Below, in pieces: positions 3,001 through 59,092 of a stretch of DNA of 64,000 nucleotides (its first letter is position 1; each line of letters opens with the position of its first letter). The position numbers and the translations under genes were made by a program. The DNA comes from an uncultured Planctomycetales bacterium (GTDB lineage Bacteria; Omnitrophota; Gorgyraeia; Zapsychrales; JAHFFX01). The stretch spans positions 969 through 64,968 of the forward strand of contig CAZTCI010000003.1 of the NCBI GenBank assembly GCA_964612665.1, read 5' to 3'. The notes under the pieces were generated by a model, which was not told the origin of the DNA, searched no databases, and was given only the letters and a program-made list of their open reading frames with translations.

Positions 3001-6000
3001 ATGTCCAAGTCCGCCCAATTCACACCGGTATTTGTTAAAACAGTCAAGTCATTCCAATTAATTCCAGCGTTGCTTAAAATCGTCATGTCATACCAGTTAA
3101 TTCCCGTTGTCGTTAAAGTTCCAATATCACTCCAATTAATACCCGTGACACTTAAGGCGCTCAAATCATTCCAATTCACTCCAGCATCACTTAAGATATC
3201 AACGTCAGCCCAGTTTAGACCTGCTGTCGTCATTTCATTAATGTTGCTCCAATTGACACCGATATTTGATAAAACACCTAAATCACTCCAGTTGATTCCA
3301 GTTGTGCTAAGAGAAGACCAATCAGCCCAGTTGATTCCGGCATCGCTTAAAATATCCAGGTCACTCCAGTTGATTCCAGCGTCGGAAATAATATCCAGAT
3401 CCGTCCAATTGATCCCGGCATCACTTAAGATATCCAGATCAGCCCAATTAATTCCAGCATCGCTTAGAATGTCCAAGTCCGCCCAATTCACACCGGCGTC
3501 ACTTAAAATATCGACATCCGACCAATTAATTCCCGCCGTTGATAACGCCCCGAAATCATTCCAATTAACACCCGAAGCACTTAAAACGCCGACATCTGTC
3601 CAGTTGATTCCGGATGTGCTCATCTCATCGATGTTCGACCAATTAACGCCCGTCGCTGATAAAACCGTTAAATCATTCCAGTTGACGCCGGTCGTACTCA
3701 AAACCGTCAAATCAGACCAATTGACACCCGCATCGCTTAAAATATCAAGATCAGCCCAATTAATGCCAGCGTCAGAAAGAATATCTAAATCCGCCCAGTT
3801 GACACCCGTATTACTTAAGACATTAATATCATTCCAATTGATACCAGCGTCAGAAAGAATATCTAAATCCGCCCAGTTCACGCCCGCATCACTTAAGATA
3901 TCGATATCAACCCAGTTGATTCCCGCGTCAGACAAAATATCCAAATCAGACCAATTCACGCCAGCGCTGCTCATTACATTAATATCTGACCAATTCAGTC
4001 CAACGGTGCTAAATACCGTTAGGTCCGCCCAGTTCACACCTGAATCACTTAATATATCAACATCCGCCCAATTGATGCCGGCAACGGTCATTTCGTTGAT
4101 GTTCGTCCAGTTAACGCCGACATTGGACATGACGGTCAAATCACTCCAATTAATACTGGAACTGCTCAACACCGTCAGATCCGTCCAATTTACACCTGCA
4201 TCACTTAAAATATCCATATCCAACCAATTAATACCAGCGTCGGAAAGGATATCCAAGTCCGCCCAATTCACACCTGCATCACTCAAAATATCCAAGTCCG
4301 CCCAGTTAATGCCGGCATCGCTTAAAACATCCATGTCCGCCCAATTCACACCTGCGTCACTCAATACATCGAGATCTGACCAATTGATTCCAGAAGTTGA
4401 CAAAGCACCGATATCAGCCCAATTAACACCCGTTGCGCTAATGACATCAATATCCATCCAGTTGATTCCGGATGTTGTCAAATCATTAAGACTTGACCAA
4501 TTGACGCCCGTCGTAGTTAGCACCGATAAATCATTCCAGTTAACACCGGTGTCGCTCATCACATCAATGTCGAGCCAGTTCACGCCCGCGTCACTCAAGA
4601 TATCAATATCAGCCCAATTAATTCCCGCATCAGAAAGAATATCCAAGTCTGCCCAATTCACGCCTGCGTTACTTAAAACAGTGAAATCATTCCAATTAAT
4701 TCCGGCATCACTTAAGATATCGAGATCCACCCAGTTGACACCAGCATTGCTTAGCGTATTAATATCGGCCCAATTAACTCCGGCATCAGAAAGAATATCC
4801 AAGTCCGCCCAATTCACGCCCGCATCACTTAAAATATCCATGTCCGTCCAGTTAATGCCAGCGGTCGTTAAAGCGCCAACATCGGCCCAGTTAACGCCGC
4901 TTGTTGCGATAACATTAATGTCGGTCCAGTTAATTCCTGTCGTCGATAAAGCACCAATATCGCTCCAGTTCACACCCGCATCACTTAAAATATCTAAGTC
5001 AGCCCAATTGATTCCAGCGTCGGATAAAACATCGAGATCCGCCCAATTCACGCCTGCATTACTTAAGACATTCATGTCCGTCCAGTTAATCCCGGCATCC
5101 GAAAGGATATCTAAATCAGCCCAATTGACGCCTGCGTCACTTAAAACGTCGATATCAAGCCAATTAATTCCAGCATCGCTTAAAATATCTAAATCGCTCC
5201 AATTAATTCCAGCATCGCTTAAAATATCCAAATCACTCCAATTGACACCAGACGTTGTCAAAGCGCCGACATCATTCCAATTAATACCAGCATCGCTGAG
5301 GATATCAACGTCTGACCAATTGATGCCTGAAGCTGTCATATCATTGATATTTGTCCAGTTGACACCAATTGTTGACATCACATTCATGTCTGACCAGTTG
5401 ATCCCCGCCGTGGTTAGTGTATCCACATCCAACCAATTAACGCCTGCGTCAGTCATGATATCTAGATCCGCCCAATTGATTCCCGCCGTTCCCAACGTAT
5501 TAAAATCAGTCCAATTAATTCCCGCATCACTTAAAGTGTCCAAGTCCGTCCAGTTAATGCCATCAGTACTGAGAATGTCGACATCCGTCCAGTTGATCCC
5601 ACTTAAAGTCATCACGGCCATATCATTCCAGTTAAGTCCGGCAACCGACATAACCGTTAAGTCACCCCAGTTGACACCCGCGTTAGAAAGTGTGGCCAAA
5701 TCATCCCAATTAATAGTTGAATCCCAGTTGACACCCGCCCCACTCATATAGGCAATGTCATACCAATTAACACCAGCGGTACTTAAAAATTGCAAATTGT
5801 CCCAGTTAATGTTGGCATCGCTTAAAATATCGAGATCACTCCAGTTGACGCCTGCATCACTCAAAATATCAAGGTCTGCCCAATTGACACCCGCGTCGCT
5901 TAAGATATCAACATCGGCCCAATTAACACCGGCATCACTCATCACATCAATATCCAGCCAATTTATTCCCGACGTCGATAAACTAAAAAGATCTGTCCAG

Positions 6001-23591: not shown

Positions 23592-23665
23592 CGCGCCAGG
23601 AGGGACTTGAACCCCCAACACCTAGCTCCGAAGGCTAGTGCTCTATCCAATTGAGCTACTGGCGC
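23592..23665 (-). tRNA. tRNA-Arg (anticodon TCG)
   Basis: Minus-strand sequence GCGCCAGTAGCTCAATTGGATAGAGCACTAGCCTTCGGAGCTAGGTGTTGGGGGTTCAAGTCCCTCCTGGCGCG folds as a cloverleaf. Anticodon loop is CTTCGGA. CCA is not encoded. Confidence 0.8.
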
Positions 23666-27270: not shown

Positions 27271-27418
27271 TAGAATTTATCTAGAAGTCATCTCATAAAT
27301 GGTATTGAGCGGGCAACGGGTGGCACGGCGAGCCGATTGGGGGAGGATCCACGCCGGGCGGAGGGGCCACAAGCGGTTTGCCGTGACAGGACCCGCTGCT
27401 TCGACTATTTATAAGATA
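27271..27418 (+). repeat. GC-rich structured MITE-like element, copy 1 (~148 nt)
   Basis: ~90% identical to 58217..58364. Short terminal inverted repeats (CTAGAA..TTCTAG; ATAAAT..ATTTAT). Internal long-range pairing GCGGG..GCACGGC / GCCGTG..CCCGC. ~65% GC against a ~43% GC background. Confidence 0.7.
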
Positions 27419-27434
27419 TATTCTACCTTTCCGT

Positions 27435-28862
27435 TTATGGCTGATGCGCGATTAATGTTTTTGTCATAACCGAATCTGTTAAATGCTGTGCAAATTTTTG
27501 GCCGATTGTAGTAATGTCACCGGCGCCTAAAAAGACAACCATGTCGCCGGGCCGCGCCATTTTTGTTAAATGCTTTAAAATTTCTTCCTTTTTTAAATAA
27601 ACAACCGGCCTGGTTGTTATTTTCTTCAGCTGATCATAAAGGACTTCACTGTTCACTCCTTTAATCGGCCGTTCACTCGCCGCGTAAATATCGGTCAGAA
27701 TTAAATAATCACTTAAACTTAGACTTTGTACAAATTCATCCATTAAAAGTTTCGTCCGCGAATAACGGTGCGGCTGAAAAACCGTGACGAGCCGGCTTTT
27801 TTTAAACAACCTCGCCGCTTTTAACGTGGCGGTAATCTCCGTCGGGTGATGACCGTAATCATCAATCACCGTAATGCCGTTGGCCTCGGCCTTCAGCTGG
27901 AACCGCCGTTCGACACCGTTAAATTTAAGCAGACTCTCAGCGATGACGCCAAAATCAATCTTAAAATTTAATCCCACGGCTATGCACGCTAAGGCGTTTA
28001 ACATGTTGTGTTCACCGGGCACATTAAGTTCAATTGTCCCTAACGTCTTGCCGTTGACCACACACTCAAAAGCCGAACGGTATCCGTTAAAGACCGGGTT
28101 CTTCGCGTAGATATCAAACTTCTCATCGCGGCCGTACGTCATGAAATTAATTTTTGTTTCCTGAAGTAATTTCGCCAGCCGCTCATCTTCACCAAAAGCA
28201 ATCACGCATCCGTCGGGCTGTGTCTGGCGGATAAACCTGCCGTAGGCTTCCATAATATTGTGCCAGGTATGATAATAATCGACGTGTTCAAAATCAATAT
28301 TAGTAATGACGGAATAATACGGTTTAAAAAATAAAAATGAGCCGTCGCTTTCATCAACTTCCGTTACAAAAAATTTGCCGGAACCTAGATTGGCGTGATA
28401 ATTATCATTCCTAATGATTCCGCCGACCATGATCGTCGGATCAAATCCGGCTTTAAGCAGGCAATGGCCGATCATCGAGGTCGTCGTAGTTTTGCCGTGG
28501 GCGCCGGCGATTGTGACGCTGATTTGTTCATTGACTAATTCAGCTAAAAGTTCGGCGCGTTTTTTGACGGGAATTTTCTGGGCCTTGGCCGCACGCTTTT
28601 CCGGATTGTCTTTTTTGACCGCCGAGGAATAGATAACAAAATCCGGATTGTCGATATGGGCGGCGTCGTGACCGATATGAATGTCCGCGCCTTTTTCACG
28701 CAGCTGGCGGCAAAAGGCACTTTCTTTAAGGTCTGAACCGCTCACCTTATGTCCCTTGGCCAGCATGATCATAGCGAGCGTGCCCATACCCACGCCGCCG
28801 ACACCAATGAAATGATAATGATGCTGTTGTTGATTCATTGTGATGACAGGTAATTGACCCAC
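27435..28862 (-). CDS. murC: UDP-N-acetylmuramate--L-alanine ligase
   Basis: Mur ligase domains (GVGGVGM, GTNGKTTT-like). The start may be the internal MNQQQ at 28838. Confidence 0.9.
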   Translation of the reverse strand: MGQLPVITMNQQQHHYHFIGVGGVGMGTLAMIMLAKGHKVSGSDLKESAFCRQLREKGADIHIGHDAAHIDNPDFVIYSSAVKKDNPEKRAAKAQKIPVKKRAELLAELVNEQISVTIAGAHGKTTTTSMIGHCLLKAGFDPTIMVGGIIRNDNYHANLGSGKFFVTEVDESDGSFLFFKPYYSVITNIDFEHVDYYHTWHNIMEAYGRFIRQTQPDGCVIAFGEDERLAKLLQETKINFMTYGRDEKFDIYAKNPVFNGYRSAFECVVNGKTLGTIELNVPGEHNMLNALACIAVGLNFKIDFGVIAESLLKFNGVERRFQLKAEANGITVIDDYGHHPTEITATLKAARLFKKSRLVTVFQPHRYSRTKLLMDEFVQSLSLSDYLILTDIYAASERPIKGVNSEVLYDQLKKITTRPVVYLKKEEILKHLTKMARPGDMVVFLGAGDITTIGQKFAQHLTDSVMTKTLIAHQP

Positions 28863-43858: not shown

Positions 43859-44195
43859 TGTTAATTTCCTCCAGCGTTGTTTCGATACGCGCGCCATACT
43901 CAATCGATTTATCAAAAATAAACTGAAACTCCGGCGTGTAGCGCATGCGGATGCGTTCACCGATTAATTTCCGGATAAACCCGCGGGCGTTGTCCAACGC
44001 TTCCTGAGCTTTTTTGACCTGGACGTTTGTTCCAAGAACACTGAAATAAACTTTCGAATGCTGCAAATCTTTCGACACTTCCACGTGCGTGATTGTCACA
44101 AATTCTAGACGGGGATCTTTCATTTCCATCAAAACAATATTGCCGATTTCCCGTTTTATACTTTGATTTACCTTTTCAATTCTTCCCATGACCAA
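43827..44195 (-). CDS. rbfA: ribosome-binding factor A
   Basis: RbfA family, 122 aa. Confidence 0.85.
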   Translation of the reverse strand: MVMGRIEKVNQSIKREIGNIVLMEMKDPRLEFVTITHVEVSKDLQHSKVYFSVLGTNVQVKKAQEALDNARGFIRKLIGERIRMRYTPEFQFIFDKSIEYGARIETTLEEINNELRKNTKNN

Positions 44196-45615
44196 CCTCT
44201 TTTCTTTTTATGACCTGCCATTGTTGAGAAGCGGCTTTCAATTCATCTTGTTTTCCATGAAGGAGCCCGTCTAATTTTTGATAAAGAACTTGTTTTAAAA
44301 TTTCGCCTGTATATTTTCCGGATTCAATGCCGATTAGTTTTAGATCATGTCCGTTAATTTCTAATGCGGCCGATTGATAACGTTCAAAATAATCTTTGAT
44401 ATATTTTTTTGTTGTTGCGCTTACAGTAGTCGCGGCAAAAAAAACAATCGCCTCGGTGCTTAATGGATGTAGCTCAGCGTAAACTTCATACGGCCGCCTC
44501 TTTTTTTTGTTTAGAAATTCATGGATTGACGGCAAAACAGCGACGGTTAGGACTTTTGCAGAATCCGTCGTCCGAGAATGAAAACTCTTCAGCAAACGAG
44601 TCAAATCCGACAACGGTATTTTCTCAGCAAGCGCCATGAAATAAACGAGCCAACGGTTTATGCTCTCGGGACTATTTATTGATTTCTGAAAAAGAACTTC
44701 TATCTTTTCCATCTGTTTAACAGCTAAAAGTGCTTTGGAGGAAGGAATATTCCAAAAAAAATTAAACGCCTTTAAATTGTTTAAACGCTTAATCGACTTA
44801 CTTGGTTTTGGCTCATCAAAGATTTTACGAAACTCTTCAAAATAACGCGGCGGCTTTAAATGCAAAATCACTTTTTTCTTAAGCGCACGCCTGAATAGGC
44901 CCAAAGTCTTGGGTTCAATTTTAAAATCCAAACGCTGTTCGAAACGAACAGCGCGCAGGATTCTCGTCGGATCATCAATAAAACTCTTTTCATGCAGAAC
45001 GCGAACTTTTTTTTCCTTAAGATCTTGAAAACCATTATACAAATCAACCAGCTCGCCAAACGTCTTTCTATTAATTTTAATCGCCATCGCGTTAATTGTA
45101 AAATCCCGACGGAATAAATCATTCTTGATGGAACCAAACGCCACAACCGGCAATGCCCCGCTGTGCGGATACGTTTCCTTGCGGGCCGTCGCAAAGTCGA
45201 TGCGCCGCCCGCTTTTCAATATCACCGTTGCCGTCTTAAATTGAGGATAACGCGTCATTATCACTTGTTTTCTTTGCGCAAAATCTTCCGCAAAACCCAA
45301 CGCATCTTCTTCAACGACAATATCCACATCCAGATTCTTTTGCAAACTTTTATCAGGAACATTACGAACCAGCGGGTTCTGCCGCGGTGATCCGTTCGTG
45401 GGCCCATCCGCCTGGTGTGGATCCTCCCACTCTCTCCTCACCGCGTCACCCGCTGTCGACGAATTTATATTTATGTGCTGAGTTTTATTTAACAAAAGAT
45501 CGCGCACAAACCCGCCGACGACATAAGCCGCCGTTGAGCGCTTATCAGCCAGCCAGCCGATTTCTCTTAAGATCTTCTCTAAATCTTTATCTAACGACGC
45601 TAATAAATTTTTCAT
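44176..45615 (-). CDS. cca: CCA-adding / poly(A) polymerase-family tRNA nucleotidyltransferase, with an in-frame repeat-element insertion
   Basis: Pol-beta-type head (GGFVRDLLL...DVDIVVE). A ~45-aa GC-rich insertion falls between these two motifs and corresponds to copy 3 of the MITE-like element. Confidence 0.75.
   Translation of the reverse strand: MKNLLASLDKDLEKILREIGWLADKRSTAAYVVGGFVRDLLLNKTQHININSSTAGDAVRREWEDPHQADGPTNGSPRQNPLVRNVPDKSLQKNLDVDIVVEEDALGFAEDFAQRKQVIMTRYPQFKTATVILKSGRRIDFATARKETYPHSGALPVVAFGSIKNDLFRRDFTINAMAIKINRKTFGELVDLYNGFQDLKEKKVRVLHEKSFIDDPTRILRAVRFEQRLDFKIEPKTLGLFRRALKKKVILHLKPPRYFEEFRKIFDEPKPSKSIKRLNNLKAFNFFWNIPSSKALLAVKQMEKIEVLFQKSINSPESINRWLVYFMALAEKIPLSDLTRLLKSFHSRTTDSAKVLTVAVLPSIHEFLNKKKRRPYEVYAELHPLSTEAIVFFAATTVSATTKKYIKDYFERYQSAALEINGHDLKLIGIESGKYTGEILKQVLYQKLDGLLHGKQDELKAASQQWQVIKRKEVGHGKN
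45365..45476 (-). repeat. MITE-like element copy 3, diverged, in-frame inside the cca-family CDS
   Basis: The reverse complement aligns with the copy 1/2 core (gtgggaggatccacaccaggcggatgggcccacgaacgg versus gtgggaggatccacactgggcggaggggcccacaagcgg, plus flanks). The host ORF stays open. Confidence 0.65.
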
Positions 45616-49863: not shown

Positions 49864-49940
49864 TGGTCGGGGAGGAGGGATTTGAACCCTCGACCTCAAC
49901 GTCCCGAACGTTGCGCGCTAGCCAACTGCGCTACTCCCCG
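49864..49940 (-). tRNA. tRNA-Pro (anticodon CGG), CCA encoded
   Basis: Minus-strand sequence CGGGGAGTAGCGCAGTTGGCTAGCGCGCAACGTTCGGGACGTTGAGGTCGAGGGTTCAAATCCCTCCTCCCCGACCA. Anticodon loop TTCGGGA. Confidence 0.8.
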
Positions 49941-58024: not shown

Positions 58025-58216
58025 AAAGAAATTTTATTTAGATGATTAAATACTGTCGGTTAAAGTTAAGATGCCGGTATCGTTTAGCGTTTGAAGGTAA
58101 CGTTGAGACCAAAAACCTAACCCATCAACGAAACGGGCATCGTTACCTTTACTATTTTTGAGTGCGGCTATATCGTATACAAGGTTGTGGAAAAAAGCAA
58201 TAATGAGTTCTTATTA

Positions 58217-58364
58217 CTAGAAGTCATCTCCTAAATGGCATTGAGCGGGCAGCGGGTGGCACGGCGAGCCGATTGTGGGAGGATCCACACTGGGCGGAGG
58301 GGCCCACAAGCGGTTTGCCGTGACAGGACCCGCTGTCTTCGGCTATTTATGCGATACGTTCTAG
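58217..58364 (+). repeat. GC-rich structured MITE-like element, copy 2
   Basis: ~90% identical to 27271..27418, with the same TIRs and internal pairing. Confidence 0.7.
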
Positions 58365-58367
58365 AAT

Positions 58368-58430
58368 GAAAACAAAAAGCGCCGGGCCCAGGCCTGGCAA
58401 CCACGCAGCGCCGACAGGCCTGGGCCCGCG
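58368..58430 (-). terminator. rho-independent terminator downstream of ribE
   Basis: 14-bp GC stem gggcccaggcctg / caggcctgggccc, followed on the minus strand by CTTTTTGTTTT. Confidence 0.6.
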
Positions 58431-58498: not shown

Positions 58499-59092
58499 TT
58501 AACGCCGCCCCAAAACATACTTCGCCAAAATATCCGTCTCAATATTCACCGCGTCATTAATTTTCTTTAAACCGAGCGTTGTGACTTTAAGCGTAAACGG
58601 AATTAAATAAACTGAAAACCAGGACGCCGTCACAGTGCCGACCGTTAGGCTGACACCATCTAAAGTTATTGAACCTTTGGGCACTAAAAAACGCTTCAAC
58701 TGTTTATCGCAATTTATCCGAAATTCAACAAAATTCGGCCGCTTAAAAATATTCTTTATGACACCAACACCATCCACATGCCCGGAGACAAAATGACCGC
58801 CGAACCGGCTGTTTGCTTTCAACGCGCGCTCAAAATTCACCATCGAGCCTTTAGCTAAATCTTTTAGCGTCGTTTTCAAAATCGTTTCCTGCATCGCTTC
58901 AAAAATAAATCGATCCGGCCGTACTAACTGCGTTGCCGTCAAACAAATACCGTTGACCGCAATGCTATCTCCTTTTTTTGTTCCCTTGAAAATAGCGCCG
59001 CAGCGAACGGTCAATTGCAAAAGATTCGCCAATTGTTTTACGCTTTGGACTTTTCCCTGCGCTTCAATGATCCCGGTGAACATAGCCTTCAA
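58499..59092 (-). CDS. ribE: riboflavin synthase alpha subunit
   Basis: Two lumazine-binding repeats (MFTGII... / SGHVDGVG). Confidence 0.85.
   Translation of the reverse strand: MKAMFTGIIEAQGKVQSVKQLANLLQLTVRCGAIFKGTKKGDSIAVNGICLTATQLVRPDRFIFEAMQETILKTTLKDLAKGSMVNFERALKANSRFGGHFVSGHVDGVGVIKNIFKRPNFVEFRINCDKQLKRFLVPKGSITLDGVSLTVGTVTASWFSVYLIPFTLKVTTLGLKKINDAVNIETDILAKYVLGRR

Follow-up and report, generated by a model that had tools for sequence, protein, structure and literature searches.

The window (the whole 64,000-nt stretch of DNA analysed here) contains two closely related hairpin-forming elements, each lying in the spacer between two housekeeping genes. Copy A (27281-27426, +; 146 nt) sits between murC and ddl, where it takes up 146 of the 171 nt that separate the murC stop from the ddl start, and copy B (58217-58364, +; 148 nt) sits between the putative ribE terminator (58384-58427) and the region upstream of fabF. 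BLASTN aligns the two over 147 nt, with 91.2% identity and in the same orientation, which bears out the two roughly 90%-identical copies described in an earlier, sequence-only reading of this DNA, and an 18-mer of the element occurs exactly twice in the window versus 0.04 times by chance. That reading gave the exact limits of copy B but set those of copy A at 27271-27418, an interval that includes 10 nt of left flank and drops the last 8 nt of the element. Copy A starts with C[TA]GAAGTCATCTC and finishes with ATATTC[TA]C; copy B is bordered by CTAG on both sides (CTAG at 58217-58220, GTTCTAG at 58358-58364). Because ddl, murC, fabF and ribE, all confirmed by Pfam, are on the minus strand, both copies are antisense to their neighbours, as had been stated, and the murC-ddl mRNA, if these genes are co-transcribed, carries the reverse complement of the copy A hairpin.

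Each element is predicted to fold into a single long, imperfect hairpin, of which the termini, the ATAAAT/ATTTAT pairing and the long-range helices recognized in the sequence-only reading are all parts. The predicted free energy is -60.4 kcal/mol (z = -4.2) for the plus strand of copy A and -53.5 kcal/mol for its minus strand; for copy B the corresponding values are -80.2 kcal/mol (z = -7.5) and -60.4 kcal/mol. Within each hairpin lies an 88-nt structured module, found by covariance model R1 at 27313-27399 (+) in copy A (75.7 bits, E about 7e-14) and at 58249-58336 (+) in copy B (93.4 bits on the plus strand versus 25.8 bits on the reverse strand). Specifically, the module of copy A consists of a P1 helix (GCGGG/CCCGC), a 3-nt AGG bulge with a purine-purine (R.R) pair, a variable helix, a purine mismatch and a tip (pair counts, alignment A4). 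The core of this tip matches a single pattern in both copies, as GGGAGGATCCACGCCGGGCGGAGGGG at 27341-27366 (+) in copy A, where it occupies invariant columns of alignments A3 and A4, and as GGGAGGATCCACACTGGGCGGAGGGG at 58277-58302 (+) in copy B. The module has a GC content of 69-72% versus about 39-44% in the flanks (the window as a whole is at roughly 43%), in keeping with the GC-richness first noted.

Promoter and terminator signals at copies A and B do not rise above shuffle expectation, and no T-run is associated with either; the idea that these copies are terminators or carry their own promoter thus finds no support. Nor do these results, or the random orientation of the wider family described below, support the earlier suggestion of a stabilizer or terminator. 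A weak sigma-70-like match (TATACA-17-AATAAT; 58176-58204, +) lies on the core strand and stops 13 nt before copy B; it is no better than shuffle expectation and has no counterpart at copy A. On the other side of copy B, at a distance of 20 nt, a perfect 13-bp GC-rich inverted repeat (GGGCCCAGGCCTG ... CAGGCCTGGGCCC) followed by TTTTTGTTTT on the minus strand occupies 58384-58427; it occurs once in the window and most probably serves ribE (58499-59092, -) as its intrinsic terminator. A 56-codon ORF (27299-27469, +) runs through copy A on the core strand and is probably spurious, since its frame is unlike the one translated in copy C. The window also contains two tRNA genes (23592-23665, -, and 49867-49940, -), which are its sole Rfam hits.

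A third, diverged copy, missed by the sequence-only reading, lies inside a gene. Copy C was found with a profile built from A and B (45364-45489, -; nhmmer E = 4e-19), and a filter-free covariance-model search of the 64-kb window returned exactly three copies (93.4, 84.6 and 75.7 bits). The full element spans about 45343-45487 (-), its 88-nt structured module 45369-45456 (-; R1, 84.6 bits; alignments A2 and A4) and its tip core, GGGAGGATCCACACCAGGCGGATGGG, 45403-45428 (-; pattern match); relative to A and B, the stem of copy C shows compensatory changes (alignments A2 and A4). The host gene (ORF 44176-45615, -) encodes an enzyme of the CCA-adding/poly(A) polymerase family (Pfam), and the element forms a 144-nt (48-codon) in-frame insert placed between GGFVRDLLLNK and KNLDVDIVV, two catalytic motifs of the head domain. 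None of the 15 homologues aligned has these 48 residues, and in the alignment with the Thermotoga enzyme 3h37 (PDB) query residues 43-92 match only two residues. AlphaFold2 models the enzyme with a mean pLDDT of 86.8 and a pTM of 0.80, residues 46-93 alone being unstructured (pLDDT below 50). On the basis of the gap relative to 3h37, the 15 homologues without the insert and the low-pLDDT loop, copy C is an in-frame insertion, apparently tolerated as a loop. The nearest homologues, with about 44% identity and lengths of 415-435 aa, are mostly named Omnitrophota in the protein database, which contains no close relative of the window organism; these names, together with the distribution of the element, are the basis of the Omnitrophota assignment. 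One homologue (P0049) is enlarged by about 50 residues close to the N-terminus, but by another insertion, not obviously related to the tip peptide.

The three copies belong to a much larger family. Scanning public genomes, one per species, with the exact 26-base tip pattern GGGAGGATCCACNCNNGGCGGANGGG returned at least 132 copies in at least 115 stretches from about 30 metagenome-assembled genomes (MAGs). Among the matches listed, nearly all MAGs are labelled Candidatus Omnitrophota or, by automated binning, Planctomycetia only, and a few are labelled Bdellovibrionota or Deltaproteobacteria. Neither of the two outcomes named at the outset as counting against the element was observed: the copies are far more numerous than two and fold in a consistent way, and no Rfam family matches them. 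The family is not a known RNA: Rfam 15 at its gathering score matches no element in the window nor in 14 further loci holding about 20 copies, and at E <= 10 the search with copy A gives only a chance snoRNA match outside the element; the sequence-only reading had likewise seen no match to familiar riboswitch or housekeeping RNA consensus sequences. Likewise, there are no matches among the 2.9 million viral contigs of IMG/VR, and a phage origin of the hairpin family is rejected on this basis. A full-text literature search found no description of Omnitrophota repeat content or of this hairpin family. With no Rfam entry and nothing relevant from the full-text search, the family appears to be undescribed, the Rickettsia palindromic elements (RPEs), Correia elements and REPINs having been compared by description.

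Every copy forms a single hairpin; among the matches listed, hairpin lengths run from about 60 to 200 nt around a median of 91 nt. The 29-base tip, GGGAGGATCCACACCGGGCGGAGGGGCCC, is almost invariant between copies, while the stems on which it sits are wholly different in sequence and yet complementary. The tip is laid out as GGG-AGGAUCCACACCGGGCGGAGGGG-CCC, with a predicted structure of GGG/CCC closing pairs, a 4x4 purine loop (AGGA/GGGG), a UCC/GGA mini-helix and a pentaloop, and the few positions that vary lie in the predicted terminal pentaloop. The loci were fetched by the core pattern, so this invariance is in part a matter of ascertainment; that it is nonetheless real is indicated by the three copies in the window and by the extra, unselected copies that the fetched loci contain. 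The exact tip pattern is missing from only 5 of 137 profile hits. The sole recurrent variant changes GGAU to GCCU (in DNA, GGAT to GCCT) and is carried by three copies in one MAG, each with the tip GGGAGCCTCCAC (locus L016, 5704-5790 and 7250-7337; locus L007, 3459-3538). In this variant the predicted inner UCC/GGA helix grows to CCUCC/GGAGG and the GGATCC palindrome is lost. By eye, the tip resembles an extended Shine-Dalgarno sequence, the 16S 3' tail and the UCC/GGA helix of SRP RNA domain IV, resemblances from which we claim nothing.

Below the tip, the hairpins differ in type. Type I, to which the window copies belong, is the 88-nt module with P1 (GCGGG/CCCGC), the 3-nt AGG bulge, an invariant G-C pair and the variable helix; its purine-purine pair switches between G.A and A.G (9 versus 11 of 22 copies), and a tandem G.A/A.G usually precedes the tip. 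Type II has a symmetric GUA/GUA loop below the tip in place of these features, and in the MAGs labelled as something other than Omnitrophota the tip sits on a plain stem. The outer parts of the elements vary by sub-family. The window sub-family has an outer AT-rich stem and terminal inverted repeats of the form GAAGTCATC.../...GATAYRTTC, and CTAGAAGTCATC termini are confined to this sub-family. A second sub-family, from the JBDRFA MAG, is roughly 215 nt long with a different 28-nt terminal repeat that begins TA|ATAC. The JBFZAV MAG, by comparison, holds at least eight near-identical bare 88-nt hairpins with unrelated flanks, in which the arms themselves are the only inverted repeat; these two sets show that young sub-families exist inside single MAGs. 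Of the features singled out in the sequence-only reading, therefore, it is the central core that coincides with the conserved part of the family, and the termini are specific to a sub-family.

Covariation supports the pairing in these stems. In 22 type I copies aligned to a hand-specified structure, 88.9% of positions expected to pair do so, the covariation score is 0.50 (0.18 for shuffled controls and 0.05-0.11 for slid registers) and 18 of 26 pairs have changed on both sides. A covariance-model alignment of 117 copies gives 92.4% paired and a score of 0.80 (0.17 shuffled, about 0.1 in slid registers), with double changes in 23 of 26 pairs and all four Watson-Crick types in use at most positions; being fitted to the model, this alignment leans toward structure. 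RNAalifold did not recover the stems from a plain MAFFT alignment of all types, because that alignment is not structure-consistent. The pairing is also asymmetric between strands. Counted over 107 distinct stems, the core strand has 159 G.U-type mismatches and the complement 75, an excess of only 2:1, and A.C mismatches are not rare; the core strand gives the better fold in 86 of 122 copies. We therefore regard the strand asymmetry of pairing as moderate. These observations are what a structured RNA with a function for the host would lead one to expect, whether as an sRNA family, a protein- or ribosome-binding site, or an mRNA stabilizer or processing site, and we consider such a multi-copy RNA the main rival to the reading we prefer. 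Beyond the very strong covariation, the conserved non-Watson-Crick features and the strand-asymmetric excess of wobble pairs, it is favoured by the strong strand preference of the covariance model and by the retention of the tip sequence across deep lineages. That MAGs labelled as other phyla keep the exact 26-mer is not what one would usually expect of purely selfish DNA, and it hints at a function. The two GGAGG-like motifs in the tip would suit a ribosome-binding variant of this idea, but the use of Shine-Dalgarno sequences here looks modest (12 of 46 ORFs) and lends it little support. It is also worth considering that near-perfect stems could be kept by gene conversion between the arms or by selection on the host, rather than by selection for transposition.

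The genomic behaviour of the copies points elsewhere. Similarity from copy to copy stops within about 90 nt of the core, and hence no ORF is carried. No larger autonomous element was found around the copies among the loci compared, and 606 clustered neighbouring ORFs contain no recurrent partner such as a transposase, RAYT or reverse transcriptase (RT), the small recurrent clusters of neighbours being housekeeping genes. With respect to the ORFs beside them the copies are oriented at random: crude ORF calls give 25 as co-directional, 30 as antisense, 16 as divergent and 9 as convergent. About 17% of copies among the matches listed lie within long open frames, and at least 9 of the at least 132 copies, the CCA case in the window included, are in frame within conserved genes, in both orientations. 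The eight cases beyond the window have Pfam domains on either side of the hairpin, in CCA/HD, CcsA, MiaB-like, HypF, YfhO, CobQ, GT2 and aldolase II genes. We reject the idea that the element is itself coding, in that copies A and C differ in frame and the copies within genes use several frames on both strands. We also reject insertion of the tip into pre-existing hairpins or terminators: what has entered the genes is the whole hairpin, 144 nt long in the case of the CCA enzyme and about 93 nt long in that of HypF. Finally, we reject a conserved syntenic position, since cases with orthologous neighbours are at about chance level and differ in hairpin type, orientation or stems. Against a structured RNA serving the host, then, stand the random orientation relative to flanking genes, the in-frame copies in unrelated conserved genes in both orientations, the absence of conserved upstream or downstream context and of promoter or terminator signals at A or B, the lack of any recurrent gene neighbour and the lack of a matching Rfam family; in light of these we judge it improbable.

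Two placements deserve mention in their own right. Hairpins of the same stem sub-family lie just upstream of an orthologous gene (71% amino-acid identity between two MAGs) in loci L059 (1867-1945) and L105 (about 4311-4403) in opposite orientations; either the two hairpins inserted independently, or recombination between the arms turned the loop around in place. A hairpin at 4894-4971 of locus L042, whose MAG carries the label Deltaproteobacteria, overlaps the stop codon of the ORF upstream, whose end resembles by eye the C-terminus of the DNA ligase LigA, and faces a convergent gene; a hairpin so placed could act as a bidirectional terminator.

Elements that are gene-less, dispersed and indifferent to orientation, and that recur as insertions in unrelated conserved genes, lead to a reading as non-autonomous mobile DNA. 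We think it probable that the window copies are mobile hairpin elements of the class to which MITEs, REPINs and Rickettsia palindromic elements belong, with the tip as a cis-acting site. In this proposal, whole hairpins would insert into the spacers between genes and also, where their length and reading frame permit, into coding sequence, where they would be read through as an extra surface loop. The tip and the helix beneath it would be the site for an enzyme encoded elsewhere, which would recognize the folded G-rich strand as single-stranded DNA or RNA, so that movement would pass through a single-stranded intermediate and may well be continuing. Furthermore, we propose that the covariation arises because only copies with an intact tip and intact pairing would propagate. 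Two features of such an element are unusual, namely that conservation lies in the tip rather than at the termini and that pairing has been kept through wholesale turnover of sequence.

The ends of the elements are informative as to what kind of mobile DNA this might be. In the window sub-family, TA lies at both ends of A, of B and of a relative in locus L026, and the three share inverted termini of the GAAGTYATC...GATRACTTC type. In copy C, a 142-nt element plus a duplicated TA makes up exactly the 144 nt that are absent from homologues, with the left TA lying within an inferred pre-insertion AAT AAA and the right-hand dinucleotide now GC. The 28-nt terminal repeat of JBDRFA also starts with TA|ATAC. 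These are features expected of a classical MITE mobilized through its terminal inverted repeats by a DDE transposase, that is, an IS630/Tc1-mariner-like or Correia-like deletion derivative that duplicates TA and for which the tip is a passenger. Such a history fits the window sub-family but not the family as a whole: terminal repeats vary by sub-family and are missing from the bare hairpins, while the tip is invariant, the reverse of what is predicted if a transposase binds the termini. Likewise, among the matches listed there is no excess of direct repeats at the hairpin ends, and TA is not commoner there than AT (11 versus 12), which gives no support to a family-wide target-site duplication or TA target; the right-hand TA of copy C has become GC. 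Nor does any longer element with the window termini occur in 815 kb of loci or in the window, where termini of this type are seen only on core-bearing elements. In addition, the elements are GC-rich, unlike typical MITEs (PMC10969869). A conventional transposase-driven MITE thus seems to us an unlikely account of the family. The suggestion of a MITE made from the sequence alone was sound insofar as the elements are short, gene-less, dispersed in either orientation and found within genes, and the proposed search for target-site duplications does find TA at both ends of A, B and the L026 copy; terminal repeats and duplications are nonetheless not what defines the family.

Copies are sometimes tightly clustered or in tandem. 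Three lie within about 650 nt in locus L008 (5429-6151), pairs are spaced by 107 nt in L037 (2781-2956) and by 129 nt in L108 (about 1310-1531), and further cases occur in L056 (3397-3526) and L105 (4311-4445); this suggests local duplication or insertion beside existing copies. Clustering also bears on the idea that the hairpin serves the host chromosome as DNA, with a tip that would be displayed on a cruciform or single-stranded hairpin as a site for a nucleoid protein, methyltransferase, primosome or recombinase, and that would have spread by recombination rather than by transposition. The short palindromes in the tip (GGATCC, CCGG and GGGCCC) are compatible with this, as is a slight tendency of the core strand to coincide with the C>G strand at its locus (69 versus 42, p = 0.013, from non-independent points and confounded by gene orientation). 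The GGAT-to-GCCT variant, however, destroys GGATCC and persists in three copies, the predominance of G.T over A.C favours one folded strand over recognition of a duplex, and insertion into coding sequence is hard to square with a positioned chromosomal function. We consider this explanation very unlikely.

The hairpin need not be the decaying relic of a transposon, and we raise, as a tentative and somewhat doubtful possibility, that the hairpin represents a new class of structured nucleic acid in which the tip, the AGG bulge and the G.A/A.G pair form a recognition module. Its partner would be conserved and might be a single-strand transposase or a reverse transcriptase that recognizes the loop, or else a factor of the host, for example the ribosome or a global RNA-binding protein. 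If the former is true, this would be a new way for bacterial repeats to move; if the latter, the copies would be functional RNA or DNA modules across the Omnitrophota and in some MAGs with other labels. An invariant tip on stems that are free in sequence but paired points to recognition based on structure, and the architecture of the tip could lead to a new mobilizing enzyme or RNA-binding factor. The Omnitrophota are an abundant, uncultured and poorly understood phylum, for which the hairpin family offers a ready-made marker of genome dynamics as well as a second clear case, this one outside Rickettsia, of palindromic DNA colonizing essential genes in frame. There is a practical consequence for annotation, in that the hairpins add low-complexity loops of roughly 30-50 residues to predicted proteins and can break assemblies.

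It is informative to compare the mobile hairpins proposed here with known systems, beginning with the definition of MITEs and the features of RPEs and Correia elements as set out in a single source (PMC10969869). The hairpins share with MITEs their small size (146-148 nt for the window copies) and the absence of a transposase or other ORF, and they have terminal inverted repeats in the window and JBDRFA sub-families, or by their arms alone in the bare hairpins. They depart from MITEs in that the module, at 69-72% GC, is far from AT-rich, and no autonomous IS with matching termini that might mobilize them was found in the 815 kb of loci, in the window or among the neighbours.

The RPEs are dispersed hairpins of about 100-150 bp with no transposase, found time and again in frame inside unrelated housekeeping genes, where the additional peptide segment is tolerated (PMC10969869). 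The family described here resembles them as a palindromic repeat lying in frame in nine genes with Pfam domains on both sides. It differs in belonging to another host phylum and in that most of its copies are intergenic, the RPEs being compared by description only; moreover, that description makes no mention of an invariant tip on variable stems such as is seen here (PMC10969869).

A recognition mechanism acting on a folded single strand, as in the REP/REPIN systems, would explain the strand-asymmetric wobble pairs of these hairpins. Elements of the REP/REPIN type (RAYT, HUH Y1) and those derived from IS200/IS605 form hairpins, are gene-less, reach high copy number and produce no target-site duplication. 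REPs and REPINs have conserved arms (20-40 nt, with a GTAG motif) and a free loop, and the RAYT gene is itself flanked by repeats. Here, in contrast, the loop is conserved and the arms are free, and no Y1 transposase gene occurs among the neighbours of the copies.

The Correia/NEMIS elements of Neisseria and IS630-type MITEs such as Nezha have a TA target. The former are about 100-200 bp long, have terminal inverted repeats, fold into a hairpin over the whole element and lie near or between genes (PMC10969869). In size, terminal inverted repeats, TA at both ends and hairpin formation, the window sub-family is like the Correia and Nezha elements. It is unlike them in that the conserved part is central, the TA flanks are not family-wide, the composition is GC-rich and no parent IS was found.

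A further parallel is the attC site of integrons, an imperfect palindrome whose structure is conserved and which acts as a folded single strand of one polarity. The hairpins described here are likewise imperfect palindromes in which structure, rather than the sequence of the stem, is conserved, although no cassette or integrase context is present among the neighbours of the copies. An attC hairpin has its conserved boxes (R''/L'' and L'/R') at the base and a tip that varies; in the present family, the base has no conserved box, all four types of pair occur there, and it is the tip that is conserved.
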